From positions 36,570-100,569 of the IMG/VR virus record IMGVR_UViG_3300021378_000010: DNA of 64,000 bases. One strand, given 5' to 3'. Both the position numbers and the translations under genes were made by a program. The notes under the pieces were generated by a model that ran no database searches, was not told the DNA's origin, and saw only the letters and a program-made list of their open reading frames with translations. Shown piece after piece: positions 39,582 through 60,193 of this stretch; position 1 is the first letter of the stretch, and each line of letters begins with the position of its first letter. Source of the DNA: a virus.

Positions 39582-39652
39582 AAATTGAATTTTTTTGTTG
39601 ACAAAGGCGCCGAATCAGTATAAATATAATCTATAGAATAAAGAGGAAACCT

Positions 39653-39742
39653 ATGAACCGCTCAATTATGAAAAACATTTATACCATGTATACATGCAAG
39701 CATGAACGCTTTTGCATGTCTGAGGGTTTTGGAAACGGTTAA
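39653..39742 (+). CDS. Putative attenuator leader peptide 1 (MNRSIMKNIYTMYTCKHERFCMSEGFGNG)
   Basis: SD GAGGA; TATAAATA at 39619; 3' end overlaps antiterminator strand; codons match array-1 tRNAs. Confidence 0.75.
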   Translation: MNRSIMKNIYTMYTCKHERFCMSEGFGNG

Positions 39743-39801
39743 CGAGTATAGTAAGTTAATAAGTTTCAAACCCTCCAGGCGAAAGTCTCGGAGGGTTTTT
39801 T
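39722..39801 (+). terminator. Attenuator 1: antiterminator 39722-39736/39763-39775 versus intrinsic terminator 39768-39801
   Basis: GAGGGTTTTGGAAAC pairs with GTTTCAAACCCTC; AAACCCTCC-AGGCGAAAGTCTC-GGAGGGTTT plus T run. Confidence 0.8.
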
Positions 39802-39849
39802 ATTTTATGGGTTGACATTCGGTAAGAATCAGTATAGATTAATAATATA

Positions 39850-40061
39850 AGGAATCAAGGTTCCTACGCTTTTTGAAAATTTAGAAGTGGCCTTAGGTTA
39901 GTCCGATGATAGGCTGGAAATAGAAATATTCTATTTTCACATGCACTATGTTACTGGTGGTACAACCTGTCCAGTAGTGATAGCGAGTTGACGAGGTTCG
40001 ATTCCTTGCTTGGATAAACGAAGGTTCGAATCCTTCCGTAGTGCAGTTGTAAATAGAATAT
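39850..40061 (+). promoter_or_regulatory. rrn-leader-like element: hairpin, boxA-like CGCTTTTTGAAAATT, long processing-type stem (39926-39948/40039-40061)
   Basis: Paralogous element at 54792-54960 with compensatory changes. Confidence 0.55.
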
Positions 40062-40146
40062 GGGAAGGTAAAGTCGGGGGTTCCGACACGCGGACTGTAA
40101 ATCCGTTCTTTAACCGGGAGAGGTTCGAGTCCTCACCTTCCCACCA
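40062..40146 (+). tRNA. tRNA-Tyr(GTA)
   Basis: Cloverleaf; GCGGA-CT-GTA-AA-TCCGT; CCA. Confidence 0.85.
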
Positions 40147-40151
40147 AACAC

Positions 40152-40227
40152 GGTGCTGTAGCTCAGTTGGTAGAGCAACGGACTCATATTCCGTGCGTCG
40201 TAGGTTCGATCCCTACTAGCACCACCA
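40152..40227 (+). tRNA. tRNA-Met(CAT), elongator-like
   Basis: ACGGA-CT-CAT-AT-TCCGT; CCA. Confidence 0.85.
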
Positions 40228-40228
40228 T

Positions 40229-40303
40229 GGCCCCATAGATTATGGGTTAGATCACTGCCCTTTCAAGGCGGAGAACTGGGTTCAAGTCCCAGTGGGGCTA
40301 CCA
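40229..40303 (+). tRNA. tRNA-Glu(TTC)
   Basis: CTGCC-CT-TTC-AA-GGCGG; CCA. Confidence 0.88.
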
Positions 40304-40370
40304 AAATAAAAGGTTGACATTCGTTCCGAATCAGTATAAATTGATATTATAAACAAATGGAGAATACAAT

Positions 40371-40532
40371 ATGACACTTTCTTTTGATCCACTCGATACG
40401 TATGTAAAAATGGTAATGGAAGTTTCTGACGAAACTCTTGTTCGTTTCTTTGACTCCATGGGTATTGACATCAATCTTGATGTTGATGTTGAAGACGAAG
40501 ATGAAGGTATTCTATACGATTGTGAGGCATAA
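40371..40532 (+). CDS. Small acidic hypothetical protein
   Basis: SD GGAG, early promoter; manual translation MTLSFDPLDTY... Confidence 0.55.
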   Translation: MTLSFDPLDTYVKMVMEVSDETLVRFFDSMGIDINLDVDVEDEDEGILYDCEA

Positions 40533-40813
40533 TGGTTAAGGTTCTTATATACGGCTCAAAAGAGCTTTATGACGATTCGTCTTATGAAGGACGAGCCGAA
40601 GCTGATATTGTTCTTTATAGAGATAAAGATGATACTTATCACGCGAGAAAGAACCGTACCCGTCGCTATATTGGAAAATATTTATATGGTGGTATGCTTG
40701 AACACGTTCTTAACCGGATTGAAAATGATGAATGGGAAGCCGATATGAAATCATATAAGCTTCAGCAGAAATATAAAGACCATCATTTAATCGAATTGAG
40801 TAAAAATGGCTGA
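40532..40813 (+). CDS. Hypothetical protein
   Basis: ORF track; translationally coupled. Confidence 0.65.
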   Translation: MVKVLIYGSKELYDDSSYEGRAEADIVLYRDKDDTYHARKNRTRRYIGKYLYGGMLEHVLNRIENDEWEADMKSYKLQQKYKDHHLIELSKNG

Positions 40814-41327
40814 TAGAAAATATCTCGTGTTTCTAGACATTGATGGCGTATTTACTTCGTCTCGTGTACATTATGCACACAACGCAGTTTATGAAATGTG
40901 GCACAGGTTTGACCCTGTTGCAGTTGACTTTATGAACAAAATCCATGATCGTTATCCAGTTCAATTTGTTTTGATCTCGACTTGGAAGAATTATCTTCGT
41001 AATGACGATAATCAAATCGAACATTGGATCCGTGCAGCATTTGCCAATTCTGGTTTTAGAGGTGATTTCCCGACAATGTGGAAAACCGATCCGGACAACC
41101 TTTGGGCTAACAAACCTTCGCCGTATGATCGTAGTCACGAGATCAAAGATTACCTCGAAGAGTACGCTTCTGACGTTCTTGATTATCTCATCTTTGATGA
41201 CAACGATTATGGATTTGAAAAAGTCTTAGGTAAGAAAAGACTTATCAGAACAGATCCTGAAAATGGATTACTCTATAAACACATGCAACGGGCCCAGAGC
41301 ATAATGGGTCAGTGGCACAAAAGATAA
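40806..41327 (+). CDS. HAD-domain protein (RNA-repair-associated HAD type)
   Basis: FLDIDGV, ISTW, EI..YL, IFDD, D...GL. Confidence 0.75.
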   Translation: MADRKYLVFLDIDGVFTSSRVHYAHNAVYEMWHRFDPVAVDFMNKIHDRYPVQFVLISTWKNYLRNDDNQIEHWIRAAFANSGFRGDFPTMWKTDPDNLWANKPSPYDRSHEIKDYLEEYASDVLDYLIFDDNDYGFEKVLGKKRLIRTDPENGLLYKHMQRAQSIMGQWHKR

Positions 41328-41328
41328 T

Positions 41329-41404
41329 GCTTCCGTAGCTCAGTGGACAGAGCAACCGGCTACGAACCGGTAGGTCGAGGGTTCAAATCCTTCCGGGAGT
41401 ACCA
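41329..41404 (+). tRNA. tRNA-Arg(ACG)
   Basis: ACCGG-CT-ACG-AA-CCGGT; CCA. Confidence 0.92.
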
Positions 41405-41406
41405 AT

Positions 41407-41482
41407 GCATCAGTAGCTCAGTTGGTAGAGCACATGGTTGAAGCCCATGGTGTCGGTGGTTCGATCCCTCCCTGATGCACCA
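41407..41482 (+). tRNA. tRNA-Phe(GAA)
   Basis: CATGG-TT-GAA-GC-CCATG; CCA. Confidence 0.9.
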
Positions 41483-41565
41483 ATTTTTAGTGTGTATGAA
41501 TTTTTCTATTGACATTCGTTTAGAATCAGTATATTCTAATAATGTAAGGAACGAAAGGAACTAAA

Positions 41566-41775
41566 ATGAAAACGATGTTTGGAACTACTCTTGTGCTTAC
41601 GGTCATTGCTTGGGTCTTTCTCTGGCCTCTCGTAGGGATCTGGGCTCTCAATACTCTGTTCGCTATGGGTATTGCTTATACATTCTGGAACTGGCTTGCT
41701 ATGATCGTTCTGACTGTATTCTTCGGTAGAGCTTCCCTCAAGGCAAACAAGGAAGTAAAGCTTCCCTCAAGGTAA
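41566..41775 (+). CDS. Small membrane protein
   Basis: Hydrophobic; early promoter and SD. Confidence 0.7.
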   Translation: MKTMFGTTLVLTVIAWVFLWPLVGIWALNTLFAMGIAYTFWNWLAMIVLTVFFGRASLKANKEVKLPSR

Positions 41776-41791
41776 ACAAGGACTAAAGAAA

Positions 41792-41956
41792 ATGAAACGA
41801 AAACCAAAGGTGCCTAAGGAACGAAACGAAGCTGTTTTTCAATTGGTTAAAAGAGCTGGTGCTGGTTCCGGTGTGCACGGTAAATCACAAAAAGCAGAAC
41901 GTAGGGCTGCTAAAGTTTCTCTACAACAAAAATGGACCCCTAGCTCAGTTGGTTAG
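41792..41956 (+). CDS. Small basic protein whose stop codon lies inside tRNA-Lys
   Basis: MKRKPKVPKERNEAVFQLVKRAGAGSGVHGKSQKAERRAAKVSLQQKWTPSSVG (manual translation). Confidence 0.55.
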   Translation: MKRKPKVPKERNEAVFQLVKRAGAGSGVHGKSQKAERRAAKVSLQQKWTPSSVG

Positions 41957-42010
41957 AGCAGCCGACTTTTAATCGGCAGGTCCTGAGTTCGAATCTCAGG
42001 GGGTTCACCA
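41934..42010 (+). tRNA. tRNA-Lys(TTT)
   Basis: GCCGA-CT-TTT-AA-TCGGC; CCA. Confidence 0.92.
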
Positions 42011-42126
42011 TTATTTTGATGATACACTACGGGCCCCGCGGAAAAGAATGTTATCCAGTTCGTCTGGTTCATGTAAAACAACACTTACCGCAAACAATAG
42101 TAGTGTATCTTCTAAGTAATGAATAT

Positions 42127-42201
42127 AGTGGTGTAGCTCAGTGGTAGAGCAAACCCCTGATAAGGGTTAGGTCGGTGGTTCGAATCCTTCAGGGAGTACC
42201 A
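42127..42201 (+). pseudogene. Chimeric tRNA-Ile(GAT) with unpaired acceptor stem
   Basis: 5' Ile body; 3' end AATCCTTCAGGGAGTACCA nearly identical to the tRNA-Arg(ACG) 3' end. Confidence 0.65.
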
Positions 42202-42278
42202 AAATAAACAGTTGACATTACCTAAGAATCAGTATATATTCATAATATAAGGTAAAACAAAACGCAACATGAGAACAC

Positions 42279-42446
42279 ATGATGAAAATCAAGACTAATC
42301 CTTTTATTGTTAGACATACTCAAAATACAGTTGAAGTTTGGCTAGGAGAACCCAATGAGCCAGAAAGCGAGTTTGTTCTTTGCTGTGATGCACAGCTGGT
42401 TCCTGCACTTATTGCAACACTAAAAAGCATCGGTTTTGCAAAATAA
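42279..42446 (+). CDS. Small hypothetical protein
   Basis: After early promoter at 42212; manual translation MMKIKTNPFIVRH... Confidence 0.5.
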   Translation: MMKIKTNPFIVRHTQNTVEVWLGEPNEPESEFVLCCDAQLVPALIATLKSIGFAK

Positions 42447-42753
42447 AACAGAAATGCTTTTAAGCGACAATATAGGCTGAGTTCAGTGTTTCTCGAGATA
42501 AACTGTTCCAGCACATCATCGCCCCGCCCTCCCACCGTGCGGCACCCGATGTAAAATATTGAGAATGAAGGAAGAAGATGATGAAACAAGATCTGAAACT
42601 TATTCGTCAAAAGATTCGTATTGCTAATAAACTTCCTGAGTCTAACCCTGTTGAATATAATCTGAAACAGGATATACTTAGACACTGGGAGATGGAGCGA
42701 CACATTCTGAAACAAGCTATAGAGATGGATCAGTTTGAACCGCAATAGAATAT

Positions 42754-42829
42754 GCGCCGGTAGCTCAGTGGCCAGAGCAGGGGACTCTTAATCCCAAGGT
42801 CGTGGGTTCGACTCCCACTCGGCACACCA
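42754..42829 (+). tRNA. tRNA-Lys(CTT)
   Basis: GGGA-CT-CTT-AA-TCCC; CCA. Confidence 0.88.
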
Positions 42830-42833
42830 AGAC

Positions 42834-42917
42834 GGTAGACGGCCCGGACGGTAAGGGGCGGGATTGCAAATCCCAGGCAGCGAAAGCTATGCGGTTCGAC
42901 TCCGCAGTCTACCTCCA
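42834..42917 (+). tRNA. tRNA-Cys(GCA) with long variable arm
   Basis: GGGA-TT-GCA-AA-TCCC; U73-CCA. Confidence 0.8.
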
Positions 42918-42923
42918 AATTTT

Positions 42924-42997
42924 TGTCTCATAGCTCAACGGTAGAGCAAACGGCTGATAACCGTTAGATGGGAGTTCGATTCTCCCTGAGACAACCA
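42924..42997 (+). tRNA. tRNA-Ile(GAT)
   Basis: AACGG-CT-GAT-AA-CCGTT; CCA. Confidence 0.88.
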
Positions 42998-43004
42998 TAA
43001 ATAA

Positions 43005-43079
43005 GCTGACTTGGTGTTAATGGTAGCACGGCTGTGTGGTATACAGTAAGAAGAGGCTCAATCCCTCTAGTCAGCACCA
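43005..43079 (+). tRNA. tRNA-Thr(GGT)
   Basis: GCTGT-GT-GGT-AT-ACAGT; acceptor GCTGACT/AGTCAGC; CCA. Confidence 0.78.
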
Positions 43080-43080
43080 T

Positions 43081-43155
43081 CCTGACGTAGTGATAATGGT
43101 AGCACACTGAGCTGTGGACTCGGTAGAGTTGGTTCGAAACCAGCCGTCAGGACCA
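43081..43155 (+). tRNA. tRNA-His(GTG), alphaproteobacterial type (no G-1, A73)
   Basis: CTGAG-CT-GTG-GA-CTCGG; CCTGACG/CGTCAGG-A-CCA. Confidence 0.85.
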
Positions 43156-43206
43156 ATAAATCACGATAAATAGTACTCAATGTATTATTCGTGAAAGGAA
43201 TAAAGA

Positions 43207-44070
43207 ATGAGCTGGTTTAAAAAGGCAACAAAAAGTGTTTCAAAAGCTGCAGATACTGTAACCAAAGAAACAACAAAAACTGTAAATGTTGTAGCGAATG
43301 AGACTACTAAGGTTACTAATACTGTGGTAAAAGAAACTATTAGCACTGCAAATGTAGTAGCAAAAGAAACTACAACGGTTGCTAAAACTGTAGCAAAAGA
43401 AACTACTAACGCTGCTAATGTAATCAAAAATACTACGATTGACGCAACGAGTGAAGTAAAGGTTGCTGCGACAAAGACTGCAATGGCTACTGCTAATGTT
43501 GCTAATGAAGCAATGGCTGACATCGAAGCTGGAGCAGTGTTAGCTGCAAAGGGTATGGAAGCTGGATTAGAAGCTGTAGAAGAAGCGGGTGAACTTATTG
43601 CTGAATGGGTAGAAGCAAACTACTGTCAGATCGGCGTAAGCGTTGCATTAGGTACAATCTTTGCAGCTCTATTGTATAGACCAGAACCTTCAAGCCAGGC
43701 TACTACAGTTGCTGCAACCGCTCCTCTTTCATCTACAGCGATACTTTATCTAGCTGCAAAAGAAACTGTTGGTGCAGTTGCTCTCGGTACCGCATGTGAT
43801 CTTACAGCACAAGCTTTCGTTGAACTTATCTGGATCTCTGGTGATATTCGTAAAGCAGTAGGTAACAAAAACAAAGAGCTTCTTACAGCTGCTATTGCAT
43901 TTACTTTATCAAAAAGTATTGACGCAGCCGCGGGTGCTATGGTAGTACCTCAAAGTTGTGCTGCTGTTGTAGCTGGAGTCGTTACTACTATCGTAGCTCA
44001 ACTTGCTTGTGAACAAACTCTGCCATCAGGTGCTAGAGAATGGGCAATGGCAGGGTCTAGTGGTCTATGA
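43207..44070 (+). CDS. Hypothetical protein with 11-residue N-terminal repeats and hydrophobic C-terminus
   Basis: (K/N)ET(T/I)xxxxxxx repeated about 5 times. Confidence 0.75.
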   Translation: MSWFKKATKSVSKAADTVTKETTKTVNVVANETTKVTNTVVKETISTANVVAKETTTVAKTVAKETTNAANVIKNTTIDATSEVKVAATKTAMATANVANEAMADIEAGAVLAAKGMEAGLEAVEEAGELIAEWVEANYCQIGVSVALGTIFAALLYRPEPSSQATTVAATAPLSSTAILYLAAKETVGAVALGTACDLTAQAFVELIWISGDIRKAVGNKNKELLTAAIAFTLSKSIDAAAGAMVVPQSCAAVVAGVVTTIVAQLACEQTLPSGAREWAMAGSSGL

Positions 44071-44288
44071 CAACGCAGGACAAAATAGTACTCATTCTTT
44101 CTTTAGGACTGATTCTATTACTTGTTGGCATAGTTGGTTTTGACTTTACTATAGCAATTCAAGAAGGTCGACCACCAGATGATAGTGTTATTGAATTGTT
44201 ACAAATGTCTATTACTGGAATTGTTGGTATAGTAGCTGGTTACCTTGCAGGTAAAAATAATAATGACGATGATGAAAATAATTGTTGA
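44067..44288 (+). CDS. Two-TM membrane protein
   Basis: Two hydrophobic helices; coupled start. Confidence 0.7.
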   Translation: MTTQDKIVLILSLGLILLLVGIVGFDFTIAIQEGRPPDDSVIELLQMSITGIVGIVAGYLAGKNNNDDDENNC

Positions 44289-44330
44289 CATTTGTAAGGA
44301 ATTGGATTATATTAATTATATAAAGAAAAT

Positions 44331-44398
44331 TGGATGATTACAGCAAAAACTCACGCTAAAAAACTTTTGATGTGTCTTAGCGGACAAACATCATCCAG
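44331..44398 (+). ncRNA. Stem-CAGCA (Y-RNA-like) ncRNA copy 1
   Basis: TGGATGAT-TACAGCAA...ATCATCCA-G. Confidence 0.65.
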
Positions 44399-44409
44399 AT
44401 AAAGAAAAT

Positions 44410-44487
44410 AGGATCGTTACAGCATTTCCTAGCTCAGGTAGAGCATTTGACTTGTAATCAAACGAAAAGCCGAAAGGCACGATCCTG
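44410..44487 (+). ncRNA. Stem-CAGCA ncRNA copy 2, with tRNA D arm and TGT anticodon arm
   Basis: AGGATCGT-TACAGCA...TAGCTCAGGTAGAGC-A-TTTGA-CTTGTAA-TCAAA...ACGATCCT-G. Confidence 0.7.
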
Positions 44488-44504
44488 AATATACTATGAA
44501 ACAT

Positions 44505-44587
44505 TGGTTTGTTTCAGCAAAAACTCGGATAAAAATCAAACTTCATAACTTTGATCGAATGGGTTCAAATCCCACCATACAAACCAG
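44505..44587 (+). ncRNA. Stem-CAGCA ncRNA copy 3, with anticodon-like and T arms
   Basis: TGGTTTGT-TTCAGCAA...TGGGTTCAAATCCCA...ACAAACCA-G. Confidence 0.65.
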
Positions 44588-44600
44588 AAAGGAATACACT

Positions 44601-46028
44601 ATGTCTTTTAAAAATGCAGCACTAAATATGAATAACGAAGCGGTAGCTCGTACTGAAAATGGTATGAGAGCTCGTAAGACTTCTGCCTCTGCAGTTCTTG
44701 ATTTTTTCGGTAAAGCTGGTTCCGCTCGTGGAACCGATATTACAAAAGATTTTATGTCTGCACTTGTAGACAACCAGGACCTCGCTGTTCGGGCTCTTCT
44801 TTGGACTCGTGACATTCGTGGTGGTGCTGGTGAACGTTCTCAGTTCCGTAATTTGCTTGCAAAGCTAGAGGCTTCCGACCCAACTCTAGCTGGTCGTTTG
44901 ATGGCACGAGTTCCTGAACTTGGCCGTTGGGATGATCTATTCGCTTACACTGATCCAATCAACCGTCGTAAGGCTTTTGAAATGATCCGTGAAGCACTGA
45001 CTATGAAGAATGGTCTATGCGCTAAGTGGATGCCTCGCAAAGGTTCTGTAGCTGTAGAACTTACTAAGTTTCTTAATCTGACTCCAAAGCAGTATCGTAA
45101 GTTGCTGGTTGGTCTAACTCAGGTTGTTGAAACTCAGATGTGTGCAAAGGAATGGGAAGCAATCAACTTCTCTCACGTTCCTTCTGTAGCATCTGCCCGC
45201 TACCAGAAAGCATTTGGTCGTAACGTTGGTGAAGCATATGGAGAATATCTTCGTGAACTCCAGAAGGCACCAGAGGATCGTAAAGATCCTAAAGTTAAGA
45301 TCAACGCAGCTGCAGTATATCCATACGATGTTGTGAAGTCTGTTACAAAGGGTAATGCGGCTGTTGCTAACGAACAGTGGAAGGCTCTGCCTAACTACGT
45401 TGGTGATGCTCGTATCATGCCGATGGTTGACGTATCTGGTTCTATGGGTAGACTTCGTTACAGTAGCGCTGGAACTGTTCAACCAATCGACGTAGCAATC
45501 TCTCTGGGTCTGTATCTGTCTGAAAAGAACACTTCTGATTTCAAGGACATGTTCCTGACTTTCAGTGGCAAGCCAAAGCTTGAAGTTCTCAAAGGCACTC
45601 TGTCTCAGCGTGTCGCACAGCTTGAGAAAGCACATTGGGACATGAACACTAACCTTCACGCAGCATTCGAAGAAATCCTTCGTGTTGCTAAGAAGGGTAA
45701 GGTTGCTCAAGCAGATATGCCTGAGATGCTGCTCATCCTCTCGGATATGCAGTTCGACAGCTGCACTCGCTTCGATGACTCTGCACAAGAGATGATCAAG
45801 CGTAAGTATGCTGAAGCAGGTTATGAAGTTCCTAAGATCGTATTCTGGAACCTTCGTGTATCAGGTACAGGTAACACTCCTGTTCGTTTCGATGATAAGG
45901 GTGTCTGCCACGTATCTGGTTTCAGCCCAGCAATCATGAAGGCAATTCTGTCTGTTGAAGAACTGGAAGACTTCACGCCGTTCAACGTGATGGTTAAGAC
46001 TCTTATGAGCGATCGTTACGATTACTAA
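44601..46028 (+). CDS. TROVE/Ro60-related vWA protein (DUF2828-like)
   Basis: TENG, RDIRGGAGER, GRWDDL, AKWMPR helical region; vWA DVSGSM, SDMQFD, FWNL; SD AAAGGA before ATG 44601. Confidence 0.8.
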   Translation: MSFKNAALNMNNEAVARTENGMRARKTSASAVLDFFGKAGSARGTDITKDFMSALVDNQDLAVRALLWTRDIRGGAGERSQFRNLLAKLEASDPTLAGRLMARVPELGRWDDLFAYTDPINRRKAFEMIREALTMKNGLCAKWMPRKGSVAVELTKFLNLTPKQYRKLLVGLTQVVETQMCAKEWEAINFSHVPSVASARYQKAFGRNVGEAYGEYLRELQKAPEDRKDPKVKINAAAVYPYDVVKSVTKGNAAVANEQWKALPNYVGDARIMPMVDVSGSMGRLRYSSAGTVQPIDVAISLGLYLSEKNTSDFKDMFLTFSGKPKLEVLKGTLSQRVAQLEKAHWDMNTNLHAAFEEILRVAKKGKVAQADMPEMLLILSDMQFDSCTRFDDSAQEMIKRKYAEAGYEVPKIVFWNLRVSGTGNTPVRFDDKGVCHVSGFSPAIMKAILSVEELEDFTPFNVMVKTLMSDRYDY

Positions 46029-46060
46029 GAGTTAGGCCTTCGGGCCTAGCCTCCAATCTT

Positions 46061-46196
46061 TGGATCATTTCAGCAACAAAACAGCTATGCATTGAAAGCA
46101 CGAGTTTGCAGGTTCGAGTCCTGCCTCCCCTACCATCTACAATTGAAGGGGAGTGGGCAAATGGTAAAGCCGCGTAAAAGCAAAAAGTTGATCCAG
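46061..46196 (+). ncRNA. Stem-CAGCA ncRNA copy 4, with circularly permuted tRNA domain (YrlA-like)
   Basis: T arm GCAGG-TTCGAGT-CCTGC, CTCCCCT-ACCA, linker, AGGGGAG, D arm, all inside TGGATCA/TGATCCA. Confidence 0.75.
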
Positions 46197-46218
46197 TTAA
46201 ACATTCAGGAGTTATATC

Positions 46219-46650
46219 ATGTCAGAACTACGTATTGAATCTTTCAAAAATGAATTTGACCAAACGATTAATCCCGGTGACGAAGTAGTATATGTAGCTA
46301 CTGGTTATTCCCATCAGGTAAGCGTAAATCGCGGCCGCTATCAGGGCTTGTGGTATAGCATTGTAACACGTACTCGTGAAGTAAAAGATGCCGACGGTAA
46401 CGTTGTAATGGAAGAACGCCACGGCCGACAGTATCCTAAGCGAGAATATTACACTGAGATGGCTCCTACGGCAGTTCGTCTTGATAATGTTCCAAAGGGG
46501 CATAAATACGTAGAAGTTTGGAACAAAGAAAAGCAACGCAAAGTCTGGACTAAAACAGATGAAATGCGTTATGGTACTACCACTCTTCCACGTAAACGAG
46601 TTTATAAGATTGGTACCTCGATGTTAGATTTCGCAGGTAACACTCTTTAA
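46219..46650 (+). CDS. Hypothetical protein
   Basis: SD AGGAG; ORF track. Confidence 0.7.
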   Translation: MSELRIESFKNEFDQTINPGDEVVYVATGYSHQVSVNRGRYQGLWYSIVTRTREVKDADGNVVMEERHGRQYPKREYYTEMAPTAVRLDNVPKGHKYVEVWNKEKQRKVWTKTDEMRYGTTTLPRKRVYKIGTSMLDFAGNTL

Positions 46651-46659
46651 TAAGAATTT

Positions 46660-46757
46660 AGGTTAGTTTCAGCAAACAAAAAATAGTTGGTTCGACTCCA
46701 ACACCACGCTCCATAATATCGCGTAGTGAGCCCATGGTGGGCAAACATGCTAACCTG
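46660..46757 (+). ncRNA. Stem-CAGCA ncRNA copy 5, with permuted T-acceptor-D domain
   Basis: AGGTTAG-TTTCAGCAA...GTTGG-TTCGACT-CCAAC...GCCC-ATGGT-GGGC...CTAACCT-G. Confidence 0.7.
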
Positions 46758-46765
46758 TAAAAATT

Positions 46766-53531: not shown

Positions 53532-54437
53532 ATGGCTATTACATCACTATCTAATCTGAGTATGAACACAATTGCCAACGAGTTTGGTGGATCTACTCCG
53601 CACTCAATTTTAGAATATTATGTGGATGGGGGTCTGATACCAACATTAAGACGAAACGTAGAGCGGATACCAGCAAATCTTGACAATATAATTTCGAATG
53701 TGCCCATAAGTTTAAGCAATTTTTCTGGTACTGCGAGAGAATACTTTTTTGAAGAATCTTATCGAGGCGGATCAGGCACTGTAACATTTAACGTACAAAC
53801 TGGATATTACAAAACTATTTTTGTATGTGGAGTTACAGACACACTTCCACTTAACACGACAGTAAATAATTTGCCATTGCCGACAATAACTTCTCCATTT
53901 TCAAGCAGCTTTCTTTCGTTGAGAACTGGACCAGAGCAACCATCTACAAATTTGGGTTCAGATGCTACAGTAAATGGTTATTCAGTTGTTACATACGATA
54001 CTACAGTTTCAAGTATTACCATATCGCTTCCAGCTGCGGTTTCTAATTATCTTATTATTACTGGATATAACACAGAACCAAATTACAGCGCTGATTTGCA
54101 ATATTTTACAACGCAGCAATATGTTGTAGCATTTGAATCTTCAAGTAGTTCAGATGCTATAATTTTAGGATCTGGTGGCGGTGTTGCGGAACTTCCGCTA
54201 AAAGGACCAAGAGTCAGATATGATTCTGGTATAGGTGATGCGCTTTCGATAAATGTTGTACTTATTTCAGCGATAGGAAATAACGTCAACAGCCCAATTG
54301 CTGGAACAAATTTCAATTACGGACCAACCAGCAGAATGATAGCAAGCTTTGACAGTACAAATACCGGTTCTGGAACCACAACGTATACAATACCAGGAAC
54401 GACGTTGCAAGCTGCAGCTATTATGTTTAGAGTGTAA
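53532..54437 (+). CDS. Putative virion/tail-fibre-associated protein
   Basis: Late promoter 53500; LSMNTIANEFGGSTPHSILEYY N-terminus; Ser/Thr-rich. Confidence 0.6.
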   Translation: MAITSLSNLSMNTIANEFGGSTPHSILEYYVDGGLIPTLRRNVERIPANLDNIISNVPISLSNFSGTAREYFFEESYRGGSGTVTFNVQTGYYKTIFVCGVTDTLPLNTTVNNLPLPTITSPFSSSFLSLRTGPEQPSTNLGSDATVNGYSVVTYDTTVSSITISLPAAVSNYLIITGYNTEPNYSADLQYFTTQQYVVAFESSSSSDAIILGSGGGVAELPLKGPRVRYDSGIGDALSINVVLISAIGNNVNSPIAGTNFNYGPTSRMIASFDSTNTGSGTTTYTIPGTTLQAAAIMFRV

Positions 54438-54499
54438 AAAAGTTTGTAGCACGCCGTCTTTCCGATATAAATAAATGTATGATAATAAAGAAGAGAAAA

Positions 54500-54574
54500 A
54501 TGCTTTCGATACTCGCCCAGAATAGTGTAACAAATTGGTCCGATCTTCCGGGTGGAGGGTTCGAGTTGCTTTGA
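54500..54574 (+). CDS. Putative attenuator leader peptide 2 (MLSILAQNSVTNWSDLPGGGFELL); in-frame ATG also at 54479
   Basis: TATAAATA at 54466; 3' end overlaps antiterminator strand; codons match array-2 tRNAs. Confidence 0.75.
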   Translation: MLSILAQNSVTNWSDLPGGGFELL

Positions 54575-54631
54575 CGTGGAATGTACATATCTACTTTAAG
54601 CAACTCGGGACATAAAAATCCCGAGTTTTTT
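54562..54631 (+). terminator. Attenuator 2: antiterminator 54562-54571/54598-54607 versus intrinsic terminator 54602-54631
   Basis: CGAGTTGCTT/AAGCAACTCG perfect 10 bp; AACTCGGGA-N8-TCCCGAGTT plus T run. Confidence 0.8.
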
Positions 54632-54791
54632 ATTTTGTTGTTGACATTTCGTGAGAATCGGTATAGTATGATAATATAAGGAATCAAGGAATAAACCACG
54701 ACGAGCCAAGCTCAAGACGGTAAAACTTTTTTCCTTAAACTGAACTTTTTAGGTTGACAAATACACCGAATCAGTTTAATATGATAATATA

Positions 54792-54960
54792 AGGAATGAA
54801 AATTCCTACGCTCTTTGAAAATTTGCTCCTTTTATCTTCTAGGCACATGCCGATAATGAAGATGGAAACAGACTTGCTCTGTTTTCACATGCACTAAAGA
54901 AAGTGTCTGATTAAGCTCAGCGAAAGGACGTGAAGCGTATAGTGCAGCTGAAAACAGAGC
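54792..54960 (+). promoter_or_regulatory. rrn-leader-like element: hairpin, boxA-like CGCTCTTTGAAAATT, long stem (54876-54896/54940-54960)
   Basis: Paralog of 39850-40061. Confidence 0.6.
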
Positions 54961-55242
54961 TTCAAAGATAGAGTCGGTATCAATGGTGTTGAGATACTAA
55001 ATATGGCTACTATCTACCGTATGGACTTCTAATAAATTTGACATACGGTTACAACGAATTATTATTGCTGGTTCGTCAATTAACCATTGACATTGTGATA
55101 GAATCAGTATATAAATTAAGTATCGAGACGATGTTGAGTGGTTGTCGAACCCCTGGTTCTAAAGTTCCAAAAACGACATTAAGAGATACATCGTCTGACG
55201 TAGCCTGCGCGTCGTTAGTAAACAAGTTCGGGCCAAGATTAT

Positions 55243-55317
55243 TCCTCAGTGGCCCTAAGGTAGGGCATCCGACTGTTAATCGGCGATTAGTTGGTTCGAT
55301 TCCAACCTGAGGAGCCA
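55243..55317 (+). tRNA. tRNA-Asn(GTT)
   Basis: CCGA-CT-GTT-AA-TCGG; G73-CCA. Confidence 0.88.
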
Positions 55318-55381
55318 AATAGGTAAGGGATAACAACGGCAGTCTCATTGCGTAGCAACGGTTGCCCTTACTAAAGAATAT

Positions 55382-55457
55382 TGCGGGGTAGAGAAGTAGC
55401 ATCTCGTCTGACTCATAATCAGAAGATCGCTGGTGCAAGTCCAGCCCACCGCAACCA
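55382..55457 (+). tRNA. tRNA-Met(CAT), initiator-like acceptor, atypical
   Basis: TGCGGGG...CCGCA-ACCA; TCTGA-CT-CAT-AA-TCAGA. Confidence 0.7.
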
Positions 55458-55462
55458 AATTT

Positions 55463-55538
55463 GCCCTTATAGCTCAGTTGGTAGAGCGCTGTACTTGTAA
55501 TGCAGATGTCCGGCGTTCGATTCGTCGTGAGGGCACCA
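55463..55538 (+). tRNA. tRNA-Thr(TGT)
   Basis: CTGTA-CT-TGT-AA-TGCAG; CCA. Confidence 0.9.
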
Positions 55539-55545
55539 AAACAAT

Positions 55546-55622
55546 GCTCTTGTAGCTCAATTGGTCAGAGCAGAGCGCTCATAACGCTTTGGTTCGGGGT
55601 TCGAGTCCCTGCGGGAGCACCA
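55546..55622 (+). tRNA. tRNA(CAT), probably Ile2 (lysidine, reads AUA)
   Basis: GAGCG-CT-CAT-AA-CGCTT; CGCTCATAACG resembles bacterial Ile2. Confidence 0.75.
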
Positions 55623-55627
55623 AAAAT

Positions 55628-55689
55628 AGGATCGGTTCAGCAAACAAAAACGCTAATTATTATAGTCTTAGCGGACAAAAACGATCCTG
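55628..55689 (+). ncRNA. Stem-CAGCA ncRNA copy 7 (similar to copy 1)
   Basis: AGGATCG-GTTCAGCAA...CGCTAA...GTCTTAGCGGACAAA...CGATCCT-G. Confidence 0.65.
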
Positions 55690-55699
55690 ATAGAATAAT

Positions 55700-55782
55700 G
55701 CGGGTATGGTGTAATTGGTAGCCACGACAGACTTAGAATCTGTTGCTTCGGCGTGGGGGTTCGAGTCCCTCTACCCGCACCA
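55700..55782 (+). tRNA. tRNA-Leu(TAG)
   Basis: ACAGA-CT-TAG-AA-TCTGT; variable arm; CCA. Confidence 0.92.
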
Positions 55783-55788
55783 ATAAAT

Positions 55789-55866
55789 GGGCCTTGACTG
55801 TGTAAATGGCTAACAGGCGTTTGTAACTCAAGTGTGCCAGGAGTTCAACTCTCCTAAGGTCCACCA
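55789..55866 (+). ncRNA. tRNA-like RNA with Ala acceptor identity and no canonical anticodon loop
   Basis: GGGCCTT/AAGGTCC (G3:U70)-A-CCA; T arm AGGAG-TTCAACT-CTCCT. Confidence 0.6.
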
Positions 55867-56168
55867 AAATAGACTGGATATAATCACCCCTTGTGAGGGT
55901 GACCCAAGGACTCAGTAACGAGATACAGCGAAGGGTTGTTGGTCAAGGTTGCAAACAACCCAGTCTATACTTATTCACTGTGTAAGAGGTCGACATCTTG
56001 CATAGAGAGAACACTGCATACCCCGTGGAACCTCGGGGTACCGACGATGACAGTTGTTGTGCAGGGGTAAAAGTCCCAACTGGGGGTTCTGGAAATTTTT
56101 ATAGGCGACGGCAATCGCCTTGACTAAAGAACTACAGTAGCAGTCTTTGCCGAGAAAGCGAACTAGTA

Positions 56169-56240
56169 GACTGTATCGTCTAATGGATAGGACGCCCTGC
56201 TTTACAGTGGGGAGATATGGGTTCGATACCTGTTGCAGTT
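56169..56240 (+). pseudogene. Degenerate tRNA-like element without CCA, inside a TGACTAAAGA/TCTTTAGTCA stem
   Basis: D arm TCGTCTAATGGATAGGAC; T loop GGTTCGATACC; irregular anticodon loop. Confidence 0.5.
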
Positions 56241-56262
56241 TTGTCTTTAGTCAGAAATTTAT

Positions 56263-56337
56263 AGGGGTGAAGGAAAATGGTAATCCACGGGCCTCCAAAA
56301 CCTTGAGAACGCGGTTCGATTCCGCGCACCCTTGCCA
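56263..56337 (+). tRNA. tRNA-Trp(CCA), weak anticodon stem
   Basis: CT-CCA-AA loop; G73-CCA. Confidence 0.78.
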
Positions 56338-56431
56338 ATAGCCAAGGTCCTAGACGTTGTGAAACTACAGGCTTTGTATGTAGTGAGAAAGCTAGGAGAC
56401 CTGCCAGTAGGGAGAAACTGGCACTTATTTT

Positions 56432-56524
56432 GGAGAGTGATCTACAGAGGTCTGTAGCCCGGTCTTGAAAACCGGTGGAGCGGCTAGTACCCGCTTGGGG
56501 ATCGTTACCACCCGCTCTCTGCCA
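56432..56524 (+). tRNA. tRNA-Ser(TGA)
   Basis: CCGGT-CT-TGA-AA-ACCGG; long variable arm; G73. Confidence 0.82.
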
Positions 56525-56635
56525 ATATTGTAGAAGTTGCCCACTGATCATATGCTGAGAGTTTTCGACCTGACTCGTTGAAGCGATTATGCCACTTCTA
56601 CCTACTAGAGGAATAGGTCCCTTCTAGATAGTTTC

Positions 56636-56710
56636 GGGCTGCGTCTATGGGGTAGCGGCTGATCCTTGCAAGATCGGCGTCACGGGGTTCGATTCCCCGG
56701 CGGTCCACCA
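56636..56710 (+). tRNA. tRNA-Ala(TGC)
   Basis: TGATC-CT-TGC-AA-GATCG; G3:U70. Confidence 0.8.
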
Positions 56711-56806
56711 AAATTTACTTGTCCAAGACCGCAAGGATTGGATCGCCTGAGCCGTAAGGTAATCCTTGGAACGATAACATGGCGTCCAAGCAAGTGATAT
56801 AGTATT

Positions 56807-56882
56807 GCGGATGTAGCTCAATCGGTAGAGCGTCTGCTTGCCAAGCAGAAGGTAGTGGGATCGTAACCCATCATCCGCTCCA
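56807..56882 (+). tRNA. tRNA-Gly(GCC)
   Basis: TCTGC-TT-GCC-AA-GCAGA; U73. Confidence 0.9.
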
Positions 56883-57032
56883 AATTTTATGACCGAAAGT
56901 CACTGTGCTGGTCTTGTCACCTTCATACACTTCGGTCTTCTAAACTGGTACCTATCGTTGTCAAATTATTAGGAAGGACATAGGGTGGATAGGTTAAAAG
57001 AATGCATGTTTGACTGCCAGTTAAATCAAAAT

Positions 57033-57106
57033 GGTCCATTGGTGTAATGGTAGCACGACAGTCTGTCTAACTGTTGGAAGGGGATCGTAACCCCTATGGA
57101 TCGCCA
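57033..57106 (+). tRNA. tRNA-Asp(GTC)
   Basis: ACAGT-CT-GTC-TA-ACTGT; G73. Confidence 0.85.
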
Positions 57107-57111
57107 ATAAC

Positions 57112-57186
57112 GCGAGATTAGCTCAGCGGTAGAGCAGCTCTTTTACACGGAGAAGGTCAGAGGTTCAATCCCTCTATCTCGCACCA
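57112..57186 (+). tRNA. tRNA-Val(TAC)
   Basis: CTCT-TT-TAC-AC-GGAG; CCA. Confidence 0.88.
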
Positions 57187-57283
57187 ATAATCGAACAAGG
57201 GTTTGTAGTAGAGAGTGACAGACCAGAAACCCTGAGACAAAAAAGTCAATACCCATTAAGATCGTCTGTTAGGTCACTCATTT

Positions 57284-57358
57284 TGGGAAGTAGTTCAGCG
57301 GCAGAGCGCCTGACTTTGAATCAGGATGTCGGAGGTTCGAATCCTCCCTTCCCAACCA
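57284..57358 (+). tRNA. tRNA-Gln(TTG)
   Basis: CCTGA-CT-TTG-AA-TCAGG; U1-A72. Confidence 0.9.
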
Positions 57359-57369
57359 AAAATTAAAAT

Positions 57370-57446
57370 GTCCTTGTGCTGCAATTGGTAGACAGGTTAC
57401 GTTGAGGGCGTAAATGTTGTGGGTTCGAGTCCCACCAAGGACACCA
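57370..57446 (+). tRNA. tRNA-Leu(GAG) with short variable loop
   Basis: TTACG-TT-GAG-GG-CGTAA; CCA. Confidence 0.82.
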
Positions 57447-57471
57447 AATTAGTATCTAAAGGTCCTATAAT

Positions 57472-57564
57472 GGAGAAGAGAGCTGTCAAGGTTGGCAGGT
57501 CTGCTTGGAAAGCAGATCGTGGTAGTAACCCTACCATGGGAATCGTGCTCCCCCTTCTCCGCCA
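57472..57564 (+). tRNA. tRNA-Ser(GGA)
   Basis: TCTGC-TT-GGA-AA-GCAGA; long variable arm. Confidence 0.82.
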
Positions 57565-57568
57565 ATAT

Positions 57569-57661
57569 GGAGGTGAGAGCCAGTAAGGTTGCTGGGACTG
57601 CCTGCTAAGCAGATCGTGGTAGTAACCCTACCATGGGAATCGTGCTCCCCCACCTCCGCCA
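57569..57661 (+). tRNA. tRNA-Ser(GCT)
   Basis: CTGC-CT-GCT-AA-GCAG; long variable arm. Confidence 0.82.
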
Positions 57662-57733
57662 AAAAATACTTGTTGACATTTGTAAAGAATCAGTATAGTA
57701 TGATAATATACCATCTGATAAAGGATACACACT

Positions 57734-57922
57734 ATGCTAACGACCAAACAAATTGCCCGTAAAGTTGCTCTGAAGATAGATTCTAATGCTGATCGTTACG
57801 ATCAAATCTGGGCAATCAAGCAAGAGTACATCAGTGCGGGTCAATCTTTACTAGCAACTGATCGCGAAACGATCGATAGAGTGCTTGAAATTCTTTATCA
57901 TGATTATGCATTTTGCGGTTGA
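57734..57922 (+). CDS. Hypothetical early protein
   Basis: Early promoter 57673; SD AAGGA. Confidence 0.65.
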   Translation: MLTTKQIARKVALKIDSNADRYDQIWAIKQEYISAGQSLLATDRETIDRVLEILYHDYAFCG

Positions 57923-57977
57923 CAAACCTTAAGAATCAGTATATTATCTAATTATGATAAAGGAAAAGGAACCCATC

Positions 57978-58175
57978 ATGCAGATTAACGGTACCAAACT
58001 TGCAGAGATTGCCTACGGAATGTCCGAGATGGCACGCGGTCATAAGAATGACATGATTTCAAATAACCTTGCTCGTGTATCTGAAAAGGTAGCTGCACAT
58101 GGAGCAACTTGGGGTGGTTCACCTCTCGATAAAACTGATATGATGGTGGTTCAATACTACCTCGCAAACAAATAA
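57978..58175 (+). CDS. Hypothetical early protein
   Basis: Early promoter 57919; SD AAGGA. Confidence 0.65.
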   Translation: MQINGTKLAEIAYGMSEMARGHKNDMISNNLARVSEKVAAHGATWGGSPLDKTDMMVVQYYLANK

Positions 58176-58182
58176 GAACAAA

Positions 58183-58259
58183 CAGGGTATAGCTCAGTCT
58201 GGTAGAGTGCTTCACTTGGAATGAAGAAGTCGTAGGTTCGAGTCCTGCTACCCTGACCA
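58183..58259 (+). tRNA. tRNA-Pro(TGG)
   Basis: CTTCA-CT-TGG-AA-TGAAG; C1-G72. Confidence 0.92.
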
Positions 58260-58706
58260 ATTCGCGTCCCCTATAAAATGGGGTCTAGATAGAAACGTTG
58301 CTAAGGTCTTTTAATAGGTTAGGATCGACGGCTCCTTCCGGTAAAGCGTTAAATCCGGACAATGTTTCTATCGCTTCCAGGTCCTTCGGGATTCTGTGCA
58401 GGCTCTCCACTTTGTGGATCCTGATTAAATCCTCTAAGTGTTGAGGTCACATAGGCAAATTTGACTATTTGGGGTCTGTGTGGTGTAAAATAGTCTAAGA
58501 CTACATTGGGTGTCGGTGTAGTACTAAAAATAAACGTCTAGACATGGATACACTACGATAACTCGTTATATCCACTCTAGGTACCAAGAGAACGCTAAAG
58601 GATTAACTTAGTGTATCTTTGTCTGGGCGTTAGGGCACCCCGTATTATAAATCTCGACAATGGTAACAAACAAGCCATTGCGTCTGGCAAACGAAACACC
58701 GCCTTT

Positions 58707-58792
58707 TGGATGGATACTGCAACCAAACAAGTAGGGTAACCTACGTATCAGAATGGTTTGGATAGTATCGTTGAGGTCCACAGACCATCCAG
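58707..58792 (+). ncRNA. Stem-CTGCAA ncRNA copy 8 (variant)
   Basis: TGGATGG-ATACTGCAA...CCATCCA-G. Confidence 0.55.
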
Positions 58793-58899
58793 TCAATTAA
58801 ATTGTGGATAGTATGCGATATGAAGCCAACCCATCAAAATGTAAGATGAAGGCTAGTGAGGCTAGCGGAACATGACAGGCCGGAGAGACGGCCACCTAT

Positions 58900-58974
58900 G
58901 CGGGTGTAGCTCAGTGGTAGAGCTCCTGCCTTCCAAGCAGATTGTCGTCGGTTCGATCCCGATCACCCGCTCCA
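58900..58974 (+). tRNA. tRNA-Gly(TCC)
   Basis: CTGC-CT-TCC-AA-GCAG; U73. Confidence 0.92.
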
Positions 58975-58977
58975 GAT

Positions 58978-59349
58978 TTAATATCCTTTGTCTTCATCAT
59001 TTTTATTACTGTGTTTGCTCATATAAGCTTCCTTGCCATAAAATGCAGCAAGTATACCAGCAACAGAAATGAAGTATATATCGGCCATAGAAGCAAGAAT
59101 AGAAGCATCTAATCCGATCGCGGCCATAAACATAGTCAAAATTGGATAGAATATCATACCGATCAATGCTACCCAAGCCATTCTTCGTTGTGCATCTTGT
59201 TTTTTGTCTTCATTTTCAATTTGTATCATTTTTTCAGATTTAGACATTTCAGCATCACTCACTATACCATCTTTATTGAGATCGTACTCTTCGTACTTTG
59301 ATCCAGTTTCTAATTTTTTTGACATGTTATTCCCCGTGGATTTACTCAT
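58978..59349 (-). CDS. Two-TM membrane protein with EF-hand-like loop (holin-like?)
   Basis: DLNKDGIVSDAE; two hydrophobic helices; lone minus-strand gene in the array. Confidence 0.65.
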   Translation of the reverse strand: MSKSTGNNMSKKLETGSKYEEYDLNKDGIVSDAEMSKSEKMIQIENEDKKQDAQRRMAWVALIGMIFYPILTMFMAAIGLDASILASMADIYFISVAGILAAFYGKEAYMSKHSNKNDEDKGY

Positions 59350-59428
59350 ATCAAAAAGCTCAACTATTACTATTTATTAGTTGACAAATATCAAGAATCA
59401 GTATAAGATTATAAATATAAGGAATAAT

Positions 59429-59505
59429 GGTTCCGTAGCTCAGCTGGATAGAGCAAGTGACTTCTAATCACTAGGTCGAGGGTTCGAATCCTTCCGGGAC
59501 CGCCA
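59429..59505 (+). tRNA. tRNA-Arg(TCT)
   Basis: AGTGA-CT-TCT-AA-TCACT; CCA. Confidence 0.92.
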
Positions 59506-59530
59506 ATAAACATAACGTAAAGGAAACTGA

Positions 59531-59746
59531 ATGACTTCTGACGCTTATGTACTAAAACGCAAGAACGGTAGCTTAGTAGAACATATTGTTCTCACAAGAC
59601 AATCAAATGGTTTATATTCAGATGAGTCAGTAGAAGTTTTATCTTTTACGACTGAACGTAAAGCACTTGAAGTAGCAAAAGTTATTGATGACGGCAACTG
59701 CGAAGTTATCTTATACGCTAATTACGATATGAAGTTAGCGGCATAA
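59531..59746 (+). CDS. Hypothetical protein
   Basis: SD AAGGA. Confidence 0.65.
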   Translation: MTSDAYVLKRKNGSLVEHIVLTRQSNGLYSDESVEVLSFTTERKALEVAKVIDDGNCEVILYANYDMKLAA

Positions 59747-59786
59747 TACTACAGGAGAAGTATCTTCTGATATAATAAAATGGAGA

Positions 59787-60005
59787 GTGATTATGGAACT
59801 TTTATTTACAATATTTTTATGGGCTGCTTTTGTATACGGTATCTACAAATGGGCAGAATCTAAAGGGCGCGAGCCTTGGCTTTGGGCAATTGCCGCAGCG
59901 CTAGTGTCTCCCTTGATTGTTGGTATTATTTTACTATTCGTACCCAAAACAATTGAAAAGCAAGCTGAAGAAGCTAAGCGTATGAAAGAATTGATGAAAG
60001 ATTAA
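59787..60005 (+). CDS. Small membrane protein
   Basis: AESKGR..W.W motif; two TMs. Confidence 0.7.
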   Translation: MIMELLFTIFLWAAFVYGIYKWAESKGREPWLWAIAAALVSPLIVGIILLFVPKTIEKQAEEAKRMKELMKD

Positions 60006-60011
60006 TCTATA

Positions 60012-60094
60012 GCCCCCTTGGTGAAATAGGTAACCACAGCAGACTTAAAATTTGCCGCTTCGGCTTCCCGGTTCGAGTCCGGGAGGGGGCACCA
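60012..60094 (+). tRNA. tRNA-Leu(TAA)
   Basis: GCAGA-CT-TAA-AA-TTTGC; CCA. Confidence 0.9.
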
Positions 60095-60101
60095 AAATAA
60101 T

Positions 60102-60193
60102 GGAAGTGGGTGTCGGTACACAGGGAGGTCTTATAAACCTTTCAGCGCCAGATTAGCGTTCTCGACCAGGTTCAACTCCTGGCACTTCTACCA
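60102..60193 (+). tRNA. Atypical tRNA with TAT anticodon (Ile?), short D arm, long variable arm
   Basis: GAGGT-CT-TAT-AA-ACCTT; GGAAGTG/CACTTCT-A-CCA. Confidence 0.68.

Follow-up and report, generated by a model that had tools for sequence, protein, structure and literature searches.

Candidate leader-peptide attenuators, with codons that track the amino-acid types of the tRNA genes downstream, precede tRNA arrays in aquatic T4-like phages

RESULTS

Two tRNA arrays are preceded by elements of the same layout

The DNA analysed here (the window) makes up the final 64 kb of a viral contig of 100,569 bp, IMG/VR record IMGVR_UViG_3300021378_000010, and it carries two arrays of transfer RNA (tRNA) genes, each preceded by a short open reading frame (ORF) and by strands that can form alternative RNA hairpins. 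Using ARAGORN at a relaxed threshold together with Rfam, we found 34 tRNA genes within the window; Tyr(GTA), Thr(GGT), Ser(TGA, GGA, GCT) and Ala(TGC) were detected only with the relaxed threshold or with Rfam. The tRNA lists that a preliminary description of the same DNA had given for both arrays were correct. The contig comes from a distant, uncultured T4-like phage, and the proteins that it encodes include a gp43-type polymerase, an SbcC-like nuclease, a helicase and topoisomerase II subunits. The best matches of gp43 were cyanophage polymerases with 45% identity, a value exceeded by no deposited phage, and neither megablast nor blastn found a close relative of the contig among cultured phages. 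The DNA runs that contain contig sequence are seawater and freshwater metagenomes, and no RNA run was found to contain it.

Both elements present the same order of parts (Table 1), with the box TATAAATA 34 nucleotides (nt) 5' of the ATG, followed by a ribosome-binding site, the short ORF (leader), an intrinsic terminator and then the tRNA array. Apart from small corrections, this bore out what had been described before, namely that each array is preceded by TATAAATA, a short ORF and mutually exclusive hairpins. In leader 1, codons 1-23 form a sensor segment and the last six, starting with GAG GGT, a structural one. An AGGA-type motif at its Shine-Dalgarno (SD) region is kept in four relatives described below (G001, G002, G003 and G007). 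For leader 2, an in-frame ATG at 54479 was considered as the start, which would add an AGA and an ATA codon, and was not adopted, as it lies 6 nt past TATAAATA and has no SD sequence.

Table 1. Features of the two loci (positions are those of the window)
Feature	Position	Strand	Details
Promoter, attenuator 1	39598-39626	+	TTGACA 39598-39603 and TATAAATA 39619-39626
SD region, leader 1	39640-39649	+	GAGG 39643-39646, 7 nt 5' of the ATG
Leader ORF 1	39653-39742	+	29 codons and TAA
Antiterminator 1	39718-39780	+	39718-39743 paired with 39755-39780; -24.6 kcal/mol
Intrinsic terminator 1	39768-39806	+	Stem 39768-39798, T-run to 39806; -19.6 kcal/mol
Sigma70-like promoter	39812-39840	+	Downstream of terminator 1
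BoxA-like motif	39868-39882	+	GCTTTTTGAAAATTT; downstream of terminator 1
tRNA array 1 (ARAGORN/Rfam)	40067-43155	+	11 genes: Tyr GTA, Met CAT, Glu TTC, Arg ACG, Phe GAA, Lys TTT, Lys CTT, Cys GCA, Ile GAT, Thr GGT, His GTG
Promoter box, attenuator 2	54466-54473	+	TATAAATA; no good -35 box; kept in G001 and G002
Leader ORF 2	54500-54574	+	24 codons and TGA; codons 1-20 are the sensor segment
Antiterminator 2	54559-54611	+	54559-54580 paired with 54590-54611; -20.4 kcal/mol
Intrinsic terminator 2	54597-54637	+	Core stem 54602-54627, then T-run; -14.2 kcal/mol
Sigma70-like promoters	54641-54669, 54754-54782, 55038-55065	+	Between terminator 2 and array 2
BoxA-like motif	54810-54824	+	GCTCTTTGAAAATTT; between terminator 2 and array 2
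tRNA array 2 (ARAGORN/Rfam)	55243-60193	+	About 20 genes: Asn, Met (two), Thr TGT, Leu TAG, odd tRNA, Trp, Ser TGA, Ala TGC, Gly GCC, Asp, Val TAC, Gln TTG, Leu GAG, Ser GGA, Ser GCT, Pro TGG, Gly TCC, Arg TCT, Leu TAA, Ile TAT

The last codons of the leaders pair with the terminator arm

To describe the competing folds, each element was folded with the 3' arm of its terminator omitted. In both cases the last codons of the ORF paired with the 5' arm of the terminator, and the same alternative pairing was obtained when the 5' part of the leader was masked, mimicking a stalled ribosome. The core of antiterminator 1 joins GAGGGTTT with AAACCCTC, with the stop codon within the inner stem, and its energy was computed with the 3' arm of the terminator absent; terminator 1, whose 5' arm is common to this helix, is identical in sequence in G001. 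Antiterminator 2 has as its core a perfect 10-bp helix of CGAGTTGCTT with AAGCAACTCG that spans the stop codon. The folds of both leaders agree with the earlier placement of the 5' antiterminator strand inside the last codons of the ORF. Since the helix runs through the stop codon in both elements, a terminating ribosome would cover it. The full-length folds of both elements also pair the first codons with the antiterminator strand, possibly an anti-antiterminator as in trp.

Leader codons match the array downstream in the window

Next to the folds, the codons of each leader were compared with the tRNAs of its array. In leader 1, 20 of the 29 codons are read by array 1 and all of its 11 tRNA types are covered (11/11). 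Array 2 reads 21 of the 24 leader-2 codons by strict wobble, or 22 if extended wobble of U34 is allowed, and the leader covers 16-18 of the 19 array-2 tRNA types, the AGA/AGG codons for Arg(TCT) being absent. Swapping the arrays left 13 matching codons for leader 1 against array 2 and three for leader 2 against array 1. When codons were drawn independently from the phage's own codon usage, the joint probability of the own-codon count and the coverage was about 2.5e-5 for leader 1 and 3-5e-5 for leader 2. None of the other short ORFs of the contig (420 ATG ORFs of 20-40 codons) matched as well as either leader, and dealing the tRNA types at random into sets of the same size reached the observed fit in at most 1e-5 of the trials.

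Codons foreign to the array concentrate in the last 4-7 codons of the leaders, a stretch in which stalling would give no signal, as the ribosome would then sit on the antiterminator strand and mask it. Five of the nine foreign codons of leader 1 fall within the last six, the structural tail, and the only array-1 codons of leader 2, TTC and GAG, are both in its tail. The amino-acid lists given before for the two leaders were correct for the segments that precede the structural ones, while for leader 1 they omitted the codons AAC (three times), TCA, TCT and ACA and three Gly codons, all of which belong to array 2. The order of codons in leader 1 and that of the tRNA genes in array 1 showed no correspondence by eye.

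Leaders follow the content of their own arrays in relatives

Starting from the gene 5' of leader 1, we reached a complete relative of 194,645 bp (G001), in which both attenuators are present, with the spacing and the terminator as in the window. About half of the positions of the leader peptides differ between the two phages, the frames stay open despite 3-nt insertions or deletions, and in leader 2 most of the replacements exchange one array-2 amino acid for another. In G001, an ORF resembling GIY-YIG homing endonucleases lies between two array-1 tRNA genes (L185:5700-6300), which fits mobile-element turnover reshaping the content of the array.

More distant relatives were reached via the Ro60-like gene next to array 1 and the boxA-like motif. 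In G002, array 1 has gained Gln, Pro, Asn and Val and is without His, and its leader has changed likewise: all 24 codons before the structural GAG GGT are of array types (24/24), and all 13 types are covered (13/13). Array 2 of the same phage includes His, Arg TCT and Gln CTG, and its leader 2 contains CAT, AGA and CAG. The His codon, which is in leader 1 in the window, is thus found in leader 2 in G002, whose tRNA-His is in array 2. The last genes of array 1 in G003 are Gly GCC and Leu GAG, and the codons GGC and CTC occur in the leader before it. The array of G007 includes Trp, Ser GGA and Ser GCT but not Glu; its leader presents TGG, TCT and AGC and contains no Glu codon before the structural GAG. 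At a further locus (L271), a Glu/Ser/Tyr/Gly/Cys array stands behind a leader made almost wholly of S, Y, G, E and C, and one eight-gene array (Ile/Tyr/Phe/Glu/Lys/Lys/Met/Cys) is preceded by a 14-codon sensor that contains every type.

Other search routes gave less. The gene upstream of leader 2 (53532-54437) had no relatives in viral contigs, and a 14-mer from the tRNA-like element matched mostly unrelated contigs among the matches listed, few loci being useful. From a scan with the start pattern of leader 2 came G001, one truncated window-like copy and otherwise just near-identical copies of the G002 type, so that three variants make up the basis of the leader-2 family. In several relatives we also noted an amber-suppressor-like tRNA with the anticodon CTA (Pyl according to ARAGORN) in array 2 of G002 (L203/L204), L193, L194-L196 and L207. 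On the reverse strand of L263 there are two attenuator cassettes in series, with leaders from 4170 and about 4965, the first before an Ile/Lys/Val block and the second before an Asn/Phe/Gly/Met/Thr/Asp/His/Tyr/Arg/Ser block, so that gating can be per sub-block.

The cassette and its codon match recur across a family of phages

To survey the family, we searched viral contigs with a pattern that holds only the antiterminator and terminator strands (GAGGG, ACCCTCC, GGAGGGTTTTTT) and no tRNA. It gave 62 loci in about 60 uncultured phage contigs, nearly all directly before tRNA arrays, and at several of them the first tRNA lies 6-40 nt past the T-run. A scanner free of this pattern, which required a terminator, a complementary upstream strand, an ORF with an SD sequence and a tRNA downstream, found both elements of the window again together with further cassettes, two of them in tandem before the sub-blocks of one array. 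Leader ORFs were picked by frame, start and ribosome-binding site, blind to the arrays, yielding 35 unique leaders, which were reduced to 24 clusters of less than 50% identity for a permutation test. Among the 24 clusters, the fraction of sensor residues that are of array types was 0.72 in the true pairs as compared with 0.53 in mismatched ones, and the fraction of array amino-acid types present in the leader was 0.97 as compared with 0.77. None of 100,000 permutations of the arrays among the leaders reached either observed value, and codon-level scores behaved alike. The leaders of related phages thus co-vary with the content of their own arrays, as the preliminary description had anticipated.

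This tracking is at the level of amino-acid type. The finer claim, that even isoacceptors are split as the arrays split them, is partly true in the window, where leader 1 also has ACA; across the family, for arrays that cover part of an amino acid's codons, the match of leader codons to the available anticodons was no better than that expected from pooled synonymous usage (0.63 as compared with 0.61, p = 0.29).

The structural parts are conserved in a different manner from the peptides, which share almost no sequence across the family except for the structural tail. The stop codon lies 3-8 codons past the antiterminator strand (GAGGG) in all 35 unique leaders (35/35). The GAGGG/CCCTC core of antiterminator 1 is kept in relatives with compensatory extensions: GAGGGTTTT/AAACCCTC is replaced by GAGGGTTCT/AGAACCCTC, and the extension TTTT/AAA of the window corresponds to TTCT/AGAA in G002. 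The helix of leader 2 differs in sequence among the window, G001 and G002, and in all three it is formed between the end of the ORF, from the last codons through the stop, and the terminator's 5' arm. The features of a leader-peptide attenuator found here are an ORF with a ribosome-binding site near a promoter, a terminator, a competing helix that can be masked and codons that would report on supply, with the enrichment of the last present for amino-acid types and without support for isoacceptors.

Promoters upstream and downstream of the terminators

The box TATAAATA occurs 21 times in the contig, where about 15 copies are expected from composition; 19 of the 21 are intergenic and 12 lie 11-57 nt 5' of an ORF start, and it behaves as a real promoter motif in the contig. 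At leader 1 a -35 box is present beside it, TTGACA being 17 nt upstream of TAAATA, and this promoter could act as a T4-type late or as a sigma70-type one. Leader 1 of G001 has the box at the identical 34-nt spacing to the ATG, and G003 has TTGACC-N18-TATAAT at its leader; many relatives likewise carry a sigma70-type promoter instead. Late transcription of the arrays, as proposed before, is plausible from the motif itself, but leader 1 also has a -35 box and relatives use other promoters.

The sigma70-type promoters that had been placed at 39812, 54641 and 54754 were confirmed, each with 10 of 12 matches, and a further one was found at 55038. The caveat attached to them, that they would allow expression independent of the attenuators, was correct. 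At both arrays of the window and of G001, such a promoter and a boxA-like GCT(C/T)TTTGAAAATTT lie between terminator and array, and the gate in these two phages would therefore act only on transcripts from the upstream promoters. Array 1 of G002 and many other relatives have no bypass promoter.

Both arrays of the window begin, after the sigma70-like promoters, with a start module (39868-40046 and 54810-54947) of three conserved parts: the boxA-like motif, a small hairpin AAACAGA..TCTGTTT and a structured element between TTTTCACATGCACTA and TAGTGCAG that contains T-arm-like motifs. The module recurs in G001, G002, G003 and other contigs, and it looks like an rrn-style antitermination and processing leader. 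Within array 2, a further TATAAATA box (59410-59417) lies 12 nt before tRNA-Arg(TCT), possibly as an internal promoter of late type from which the final part of the array is transcribed.

Other features of the arrays and their surroundings

Array 2 includes a tRNA-like gene (56168-56242) with an apparent 8-nt anticodon loop, which ARAGORN left unnamed and which matched the Rfam tRNA model with 35.8 bits. It has a clear homologue in array 1 of G001 (L185:5309-5383) with a different loop sequence. Possible roles of the gene are those of a frameshift-type tRNA, a suppressor-type tRNA or a decoy. In array 1, a shortened tRNA-like sequence with a GAT-type anticodon loop (42134-42190) matched the same model with 45.9 bits over model positions 8-63 only. 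The window also encodes a permuted transfer-messenger RNA (two-piece, alpha-type) at 61855-62218, with 124.6 bits and the tag ANENFAPKAFALAA according to ARAGORN. Just 3' of array 1 there is a gene for a Ro60/TROVE-like RNA-binding protein (44496-46028; phrog_850, 1e-142), which adjoins tRNA arrays in relatives too.

DISCUSSION

In this work we describe a dedicated cassette before phage tRNA arrays, in which the leader tracks the array, the helices show compensatory changes and the position of the stop codon is fixed. These properties support the core of the preliminary description, that the elements are attenuators of the trp/his type with leader codons that stand for the tRNAs of the array, and we consider it quite probable that each one works as a transcription attenuator of the leader-peptide, ribosome-mediated kind and controls read-through from the upstream promoter into the tRNA block. 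According to this model, RNA polymerase would start at the TATAAATA promoter and a ribosome would load on the leader and trail the polymerase. If all sensor codons were decoded fast, the ribosome at the last codons or the stop would cover the 5' strand of the antiterminator, the terminator hairpin would form and transcription would stop before the array. If the ribosome were delayed at any sensor codon by scarcity of the charged tRNA, the strand would remain free and pair with the 5' arm of the terminator, and the polymerase would enter the array. Since the sensor codons cover nearly every amino-acid type of the array, each block would be transcribed when needed and silenced by the tRNAs that it encodes. 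Translation of the leaders, the direction of the switch and its response to tRNA depletion are predictions from the sequences, and candidate triggers would be a poor tRNA supply in the host, tRNA cleavage by host defence nucleases, host tRNA decay and starvation.

Several observations weigh against this interpretation. The ribosome-binding site of leader 2 is a weak, purine-rich GAAGAG, and the stem of terminator 1 contains a bulge, which makes it a weaker part of the element. Leader 1 holds AAC, TCA and ACA, which belong to the other array, and about 28% of the sensor residues in the family are of types outside the array as delimited. The isoacceptor analysis described above gave no tracking, and tables for single codon boxes were too thin to be informative. 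G001 lacks tRNA-His, Thr(GGT) and Lys(CTT) in its whole genome, and its leader 1 retains CAT, ACC/ACT and AAG. The leader blocks conserved between the window and G001 are identical in nucleotides, without synonymous changes, which fits recent divergence or a constraint on the RNA as well as it fits selection on codons. Finally, given the bypass promoters, the share of the gate in the total tRNA output of the window phage may be small.

These points leave room for other explanations. The leaders may be translated and selected for their composition and yet control something other than read-through at the terminator, such as the processing or stability of the tRNA precursor, a timer that reports the build-up of phage tRNAs, or a switch of reversed polarity in which smooth translation gives read-through. 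The match between codons and arrays says that decoding matters and not what decoding controls, the arrays of the window have their own promoters, and the full-length fold of leader 2 in G002 retains the antiterminator next to a weak T-run. However, the parts that the cassette conserves are exactly the terminator, the competing strand in the last codons and the fixed position of the stop, many relatives start their first tRNA 6-40 nt past the T-run with no other promoter, and the geometry yields read-through upon stalling and not the reverse; we therefore regard a different output as unlikely.

We give still less credit to the possibility that these are ordinary insulating terminators next to ORFs that are small genes or non-functional frames, whose likeness to the arrays is indirect, for example through the codon bias of the phage. 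Both terminators do follow protein genes (39147-39581 and 53532-54437), and the unvaried leader blocks shared with G001 would be expected from such a reading as well; phage tRNA sets also mirror phage codon usage, a relation discussed in PMC10264068. Codon bias, though, cannot account for two leaders that split the amino acids as the arrays do, as the partition test and the swap control indicate, nor for leaders that track their own arrays when these are permuted among phages, and a function of the peptides is at odds with the near absence of shared sequence beyond the structural tail, so that this explanation appears very improbable. That the whole arrangement arose by chance was the least credible possibility and was rejected by the codon-usage null, the comparison with short ORFs and the family permutation test. 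It is true that AT-rich intergenic DNA next to a terminator readily yields short ORFs and alternative pairings, that stretches complementary to a terminator arm are common and that composition predicts many copies of TATAAATA in the contig, but a joint probability of about 3e-5 per leader, not approached by any of the 420 short ORFs, and the recurrence of the arrangement in dozens of independent contigs make it almost inconceivable.

The proposed attenuators can be compared with several known systems. Among the attenuators of enterobacterial amino-acid operons, the ilvGMEDA leader has Ile, Leu and Val codons and the thr leader Thr and Ile codons, and others control trp, his, leu and pheA. The phage elements resemble them in the promoter-proximal short ORF with an SD sequence, in a ribosome whose position would decide which helix forms, in a terminator 5' arm that can pair upstream instead and in the sensing of several amino acids per leader. 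They differ in that they are viral and would regulate tRNA genes rather than biosynthetic enzymes, in the location of the antiterminator strand, which is within the ORF and close ahead of the stop instead of past it, and in the breadth of sensing: in place of runs of one to three types, the leaders represent up to about 17 amino-acid types, each by about one codon or a few. Classical attenuators of this class regulate genes for amino-acid biosynthesis or aminoacyl-tRNA synthetases; here tRNA arrays lie downstream, and the phage element therefore falls outside every described attenuator family. Closest in its target is the attenuation of the phenylalanyl-tRNA synthetase operon pheST of Escherichia coli by the pheM leader, in which a leader-peptide attenuator likewise controls a decoding component for the codon that it senses; in contrast to the phage elements, it has a single specificity (Phe), acts on a synthetase gene and is cellular.

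T-box riboswitches also couple the state of tRNA to the choice between terminator and antiterminator before translation-related genes, but what they bind is the uncharged tRNA itself, and neither a ribosome nor an ORF is required. No T-box was matched by Rfam at 38000-64000 (gathering threshold) or at 39500-47000 (E <= 1), and no other Rfam cis-regulatory family matched in either leader. The trn operon of Anabaena sp. PCC 7120, a long stress-induced tRNA array (PMC8421152; PMC10272220), is similar in that an accessory tRNA array stays silent until translation is impaired, while its control, by direct repeats overlapping the promoter and the repressor TrcR, is different; the words attenuator, leader and terminator are absent from the text of PMC8421152. 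A literature search found no published description of leader-peptide control of tRNA genes, nor of the multiplex attenuator of tRNA genes for which the preliminary description had known no precedent.

To our knowledge, the regulation of phage tRNA genes has been little described, and the bacterial tRNA genes that we know of respond to growth-rate and stringent control and not to the supply of individual tRNAs. If the proposed mechanism is true, it would be a new use of attenuation with a new logic, an OR gate over many tRNAs. As compact, programmable sensors of decoding speed the leaders would be of use in synthetic biology, and where an array is fragmentary they could aid annotation by predicting what it contains. 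The leaders also bear on the debate about the role of phage tRNAs, which may be codon compensation or a counter to defences that target tRNA (PMC10264068). They would read out directly which tRNAs the phage treats as limiting in its host. Taken together, our results make it likely that a modular cassette, widespread in aquatic T4-like phages, acts as a multiplex sensor for each block and places tRNA transcription under feedback from decoding, which would make these the first tRNA genes under leader-peptide attenuation and equip the phages to detect a shortage of tRNA in the host or defence systems that cleave tRNA.

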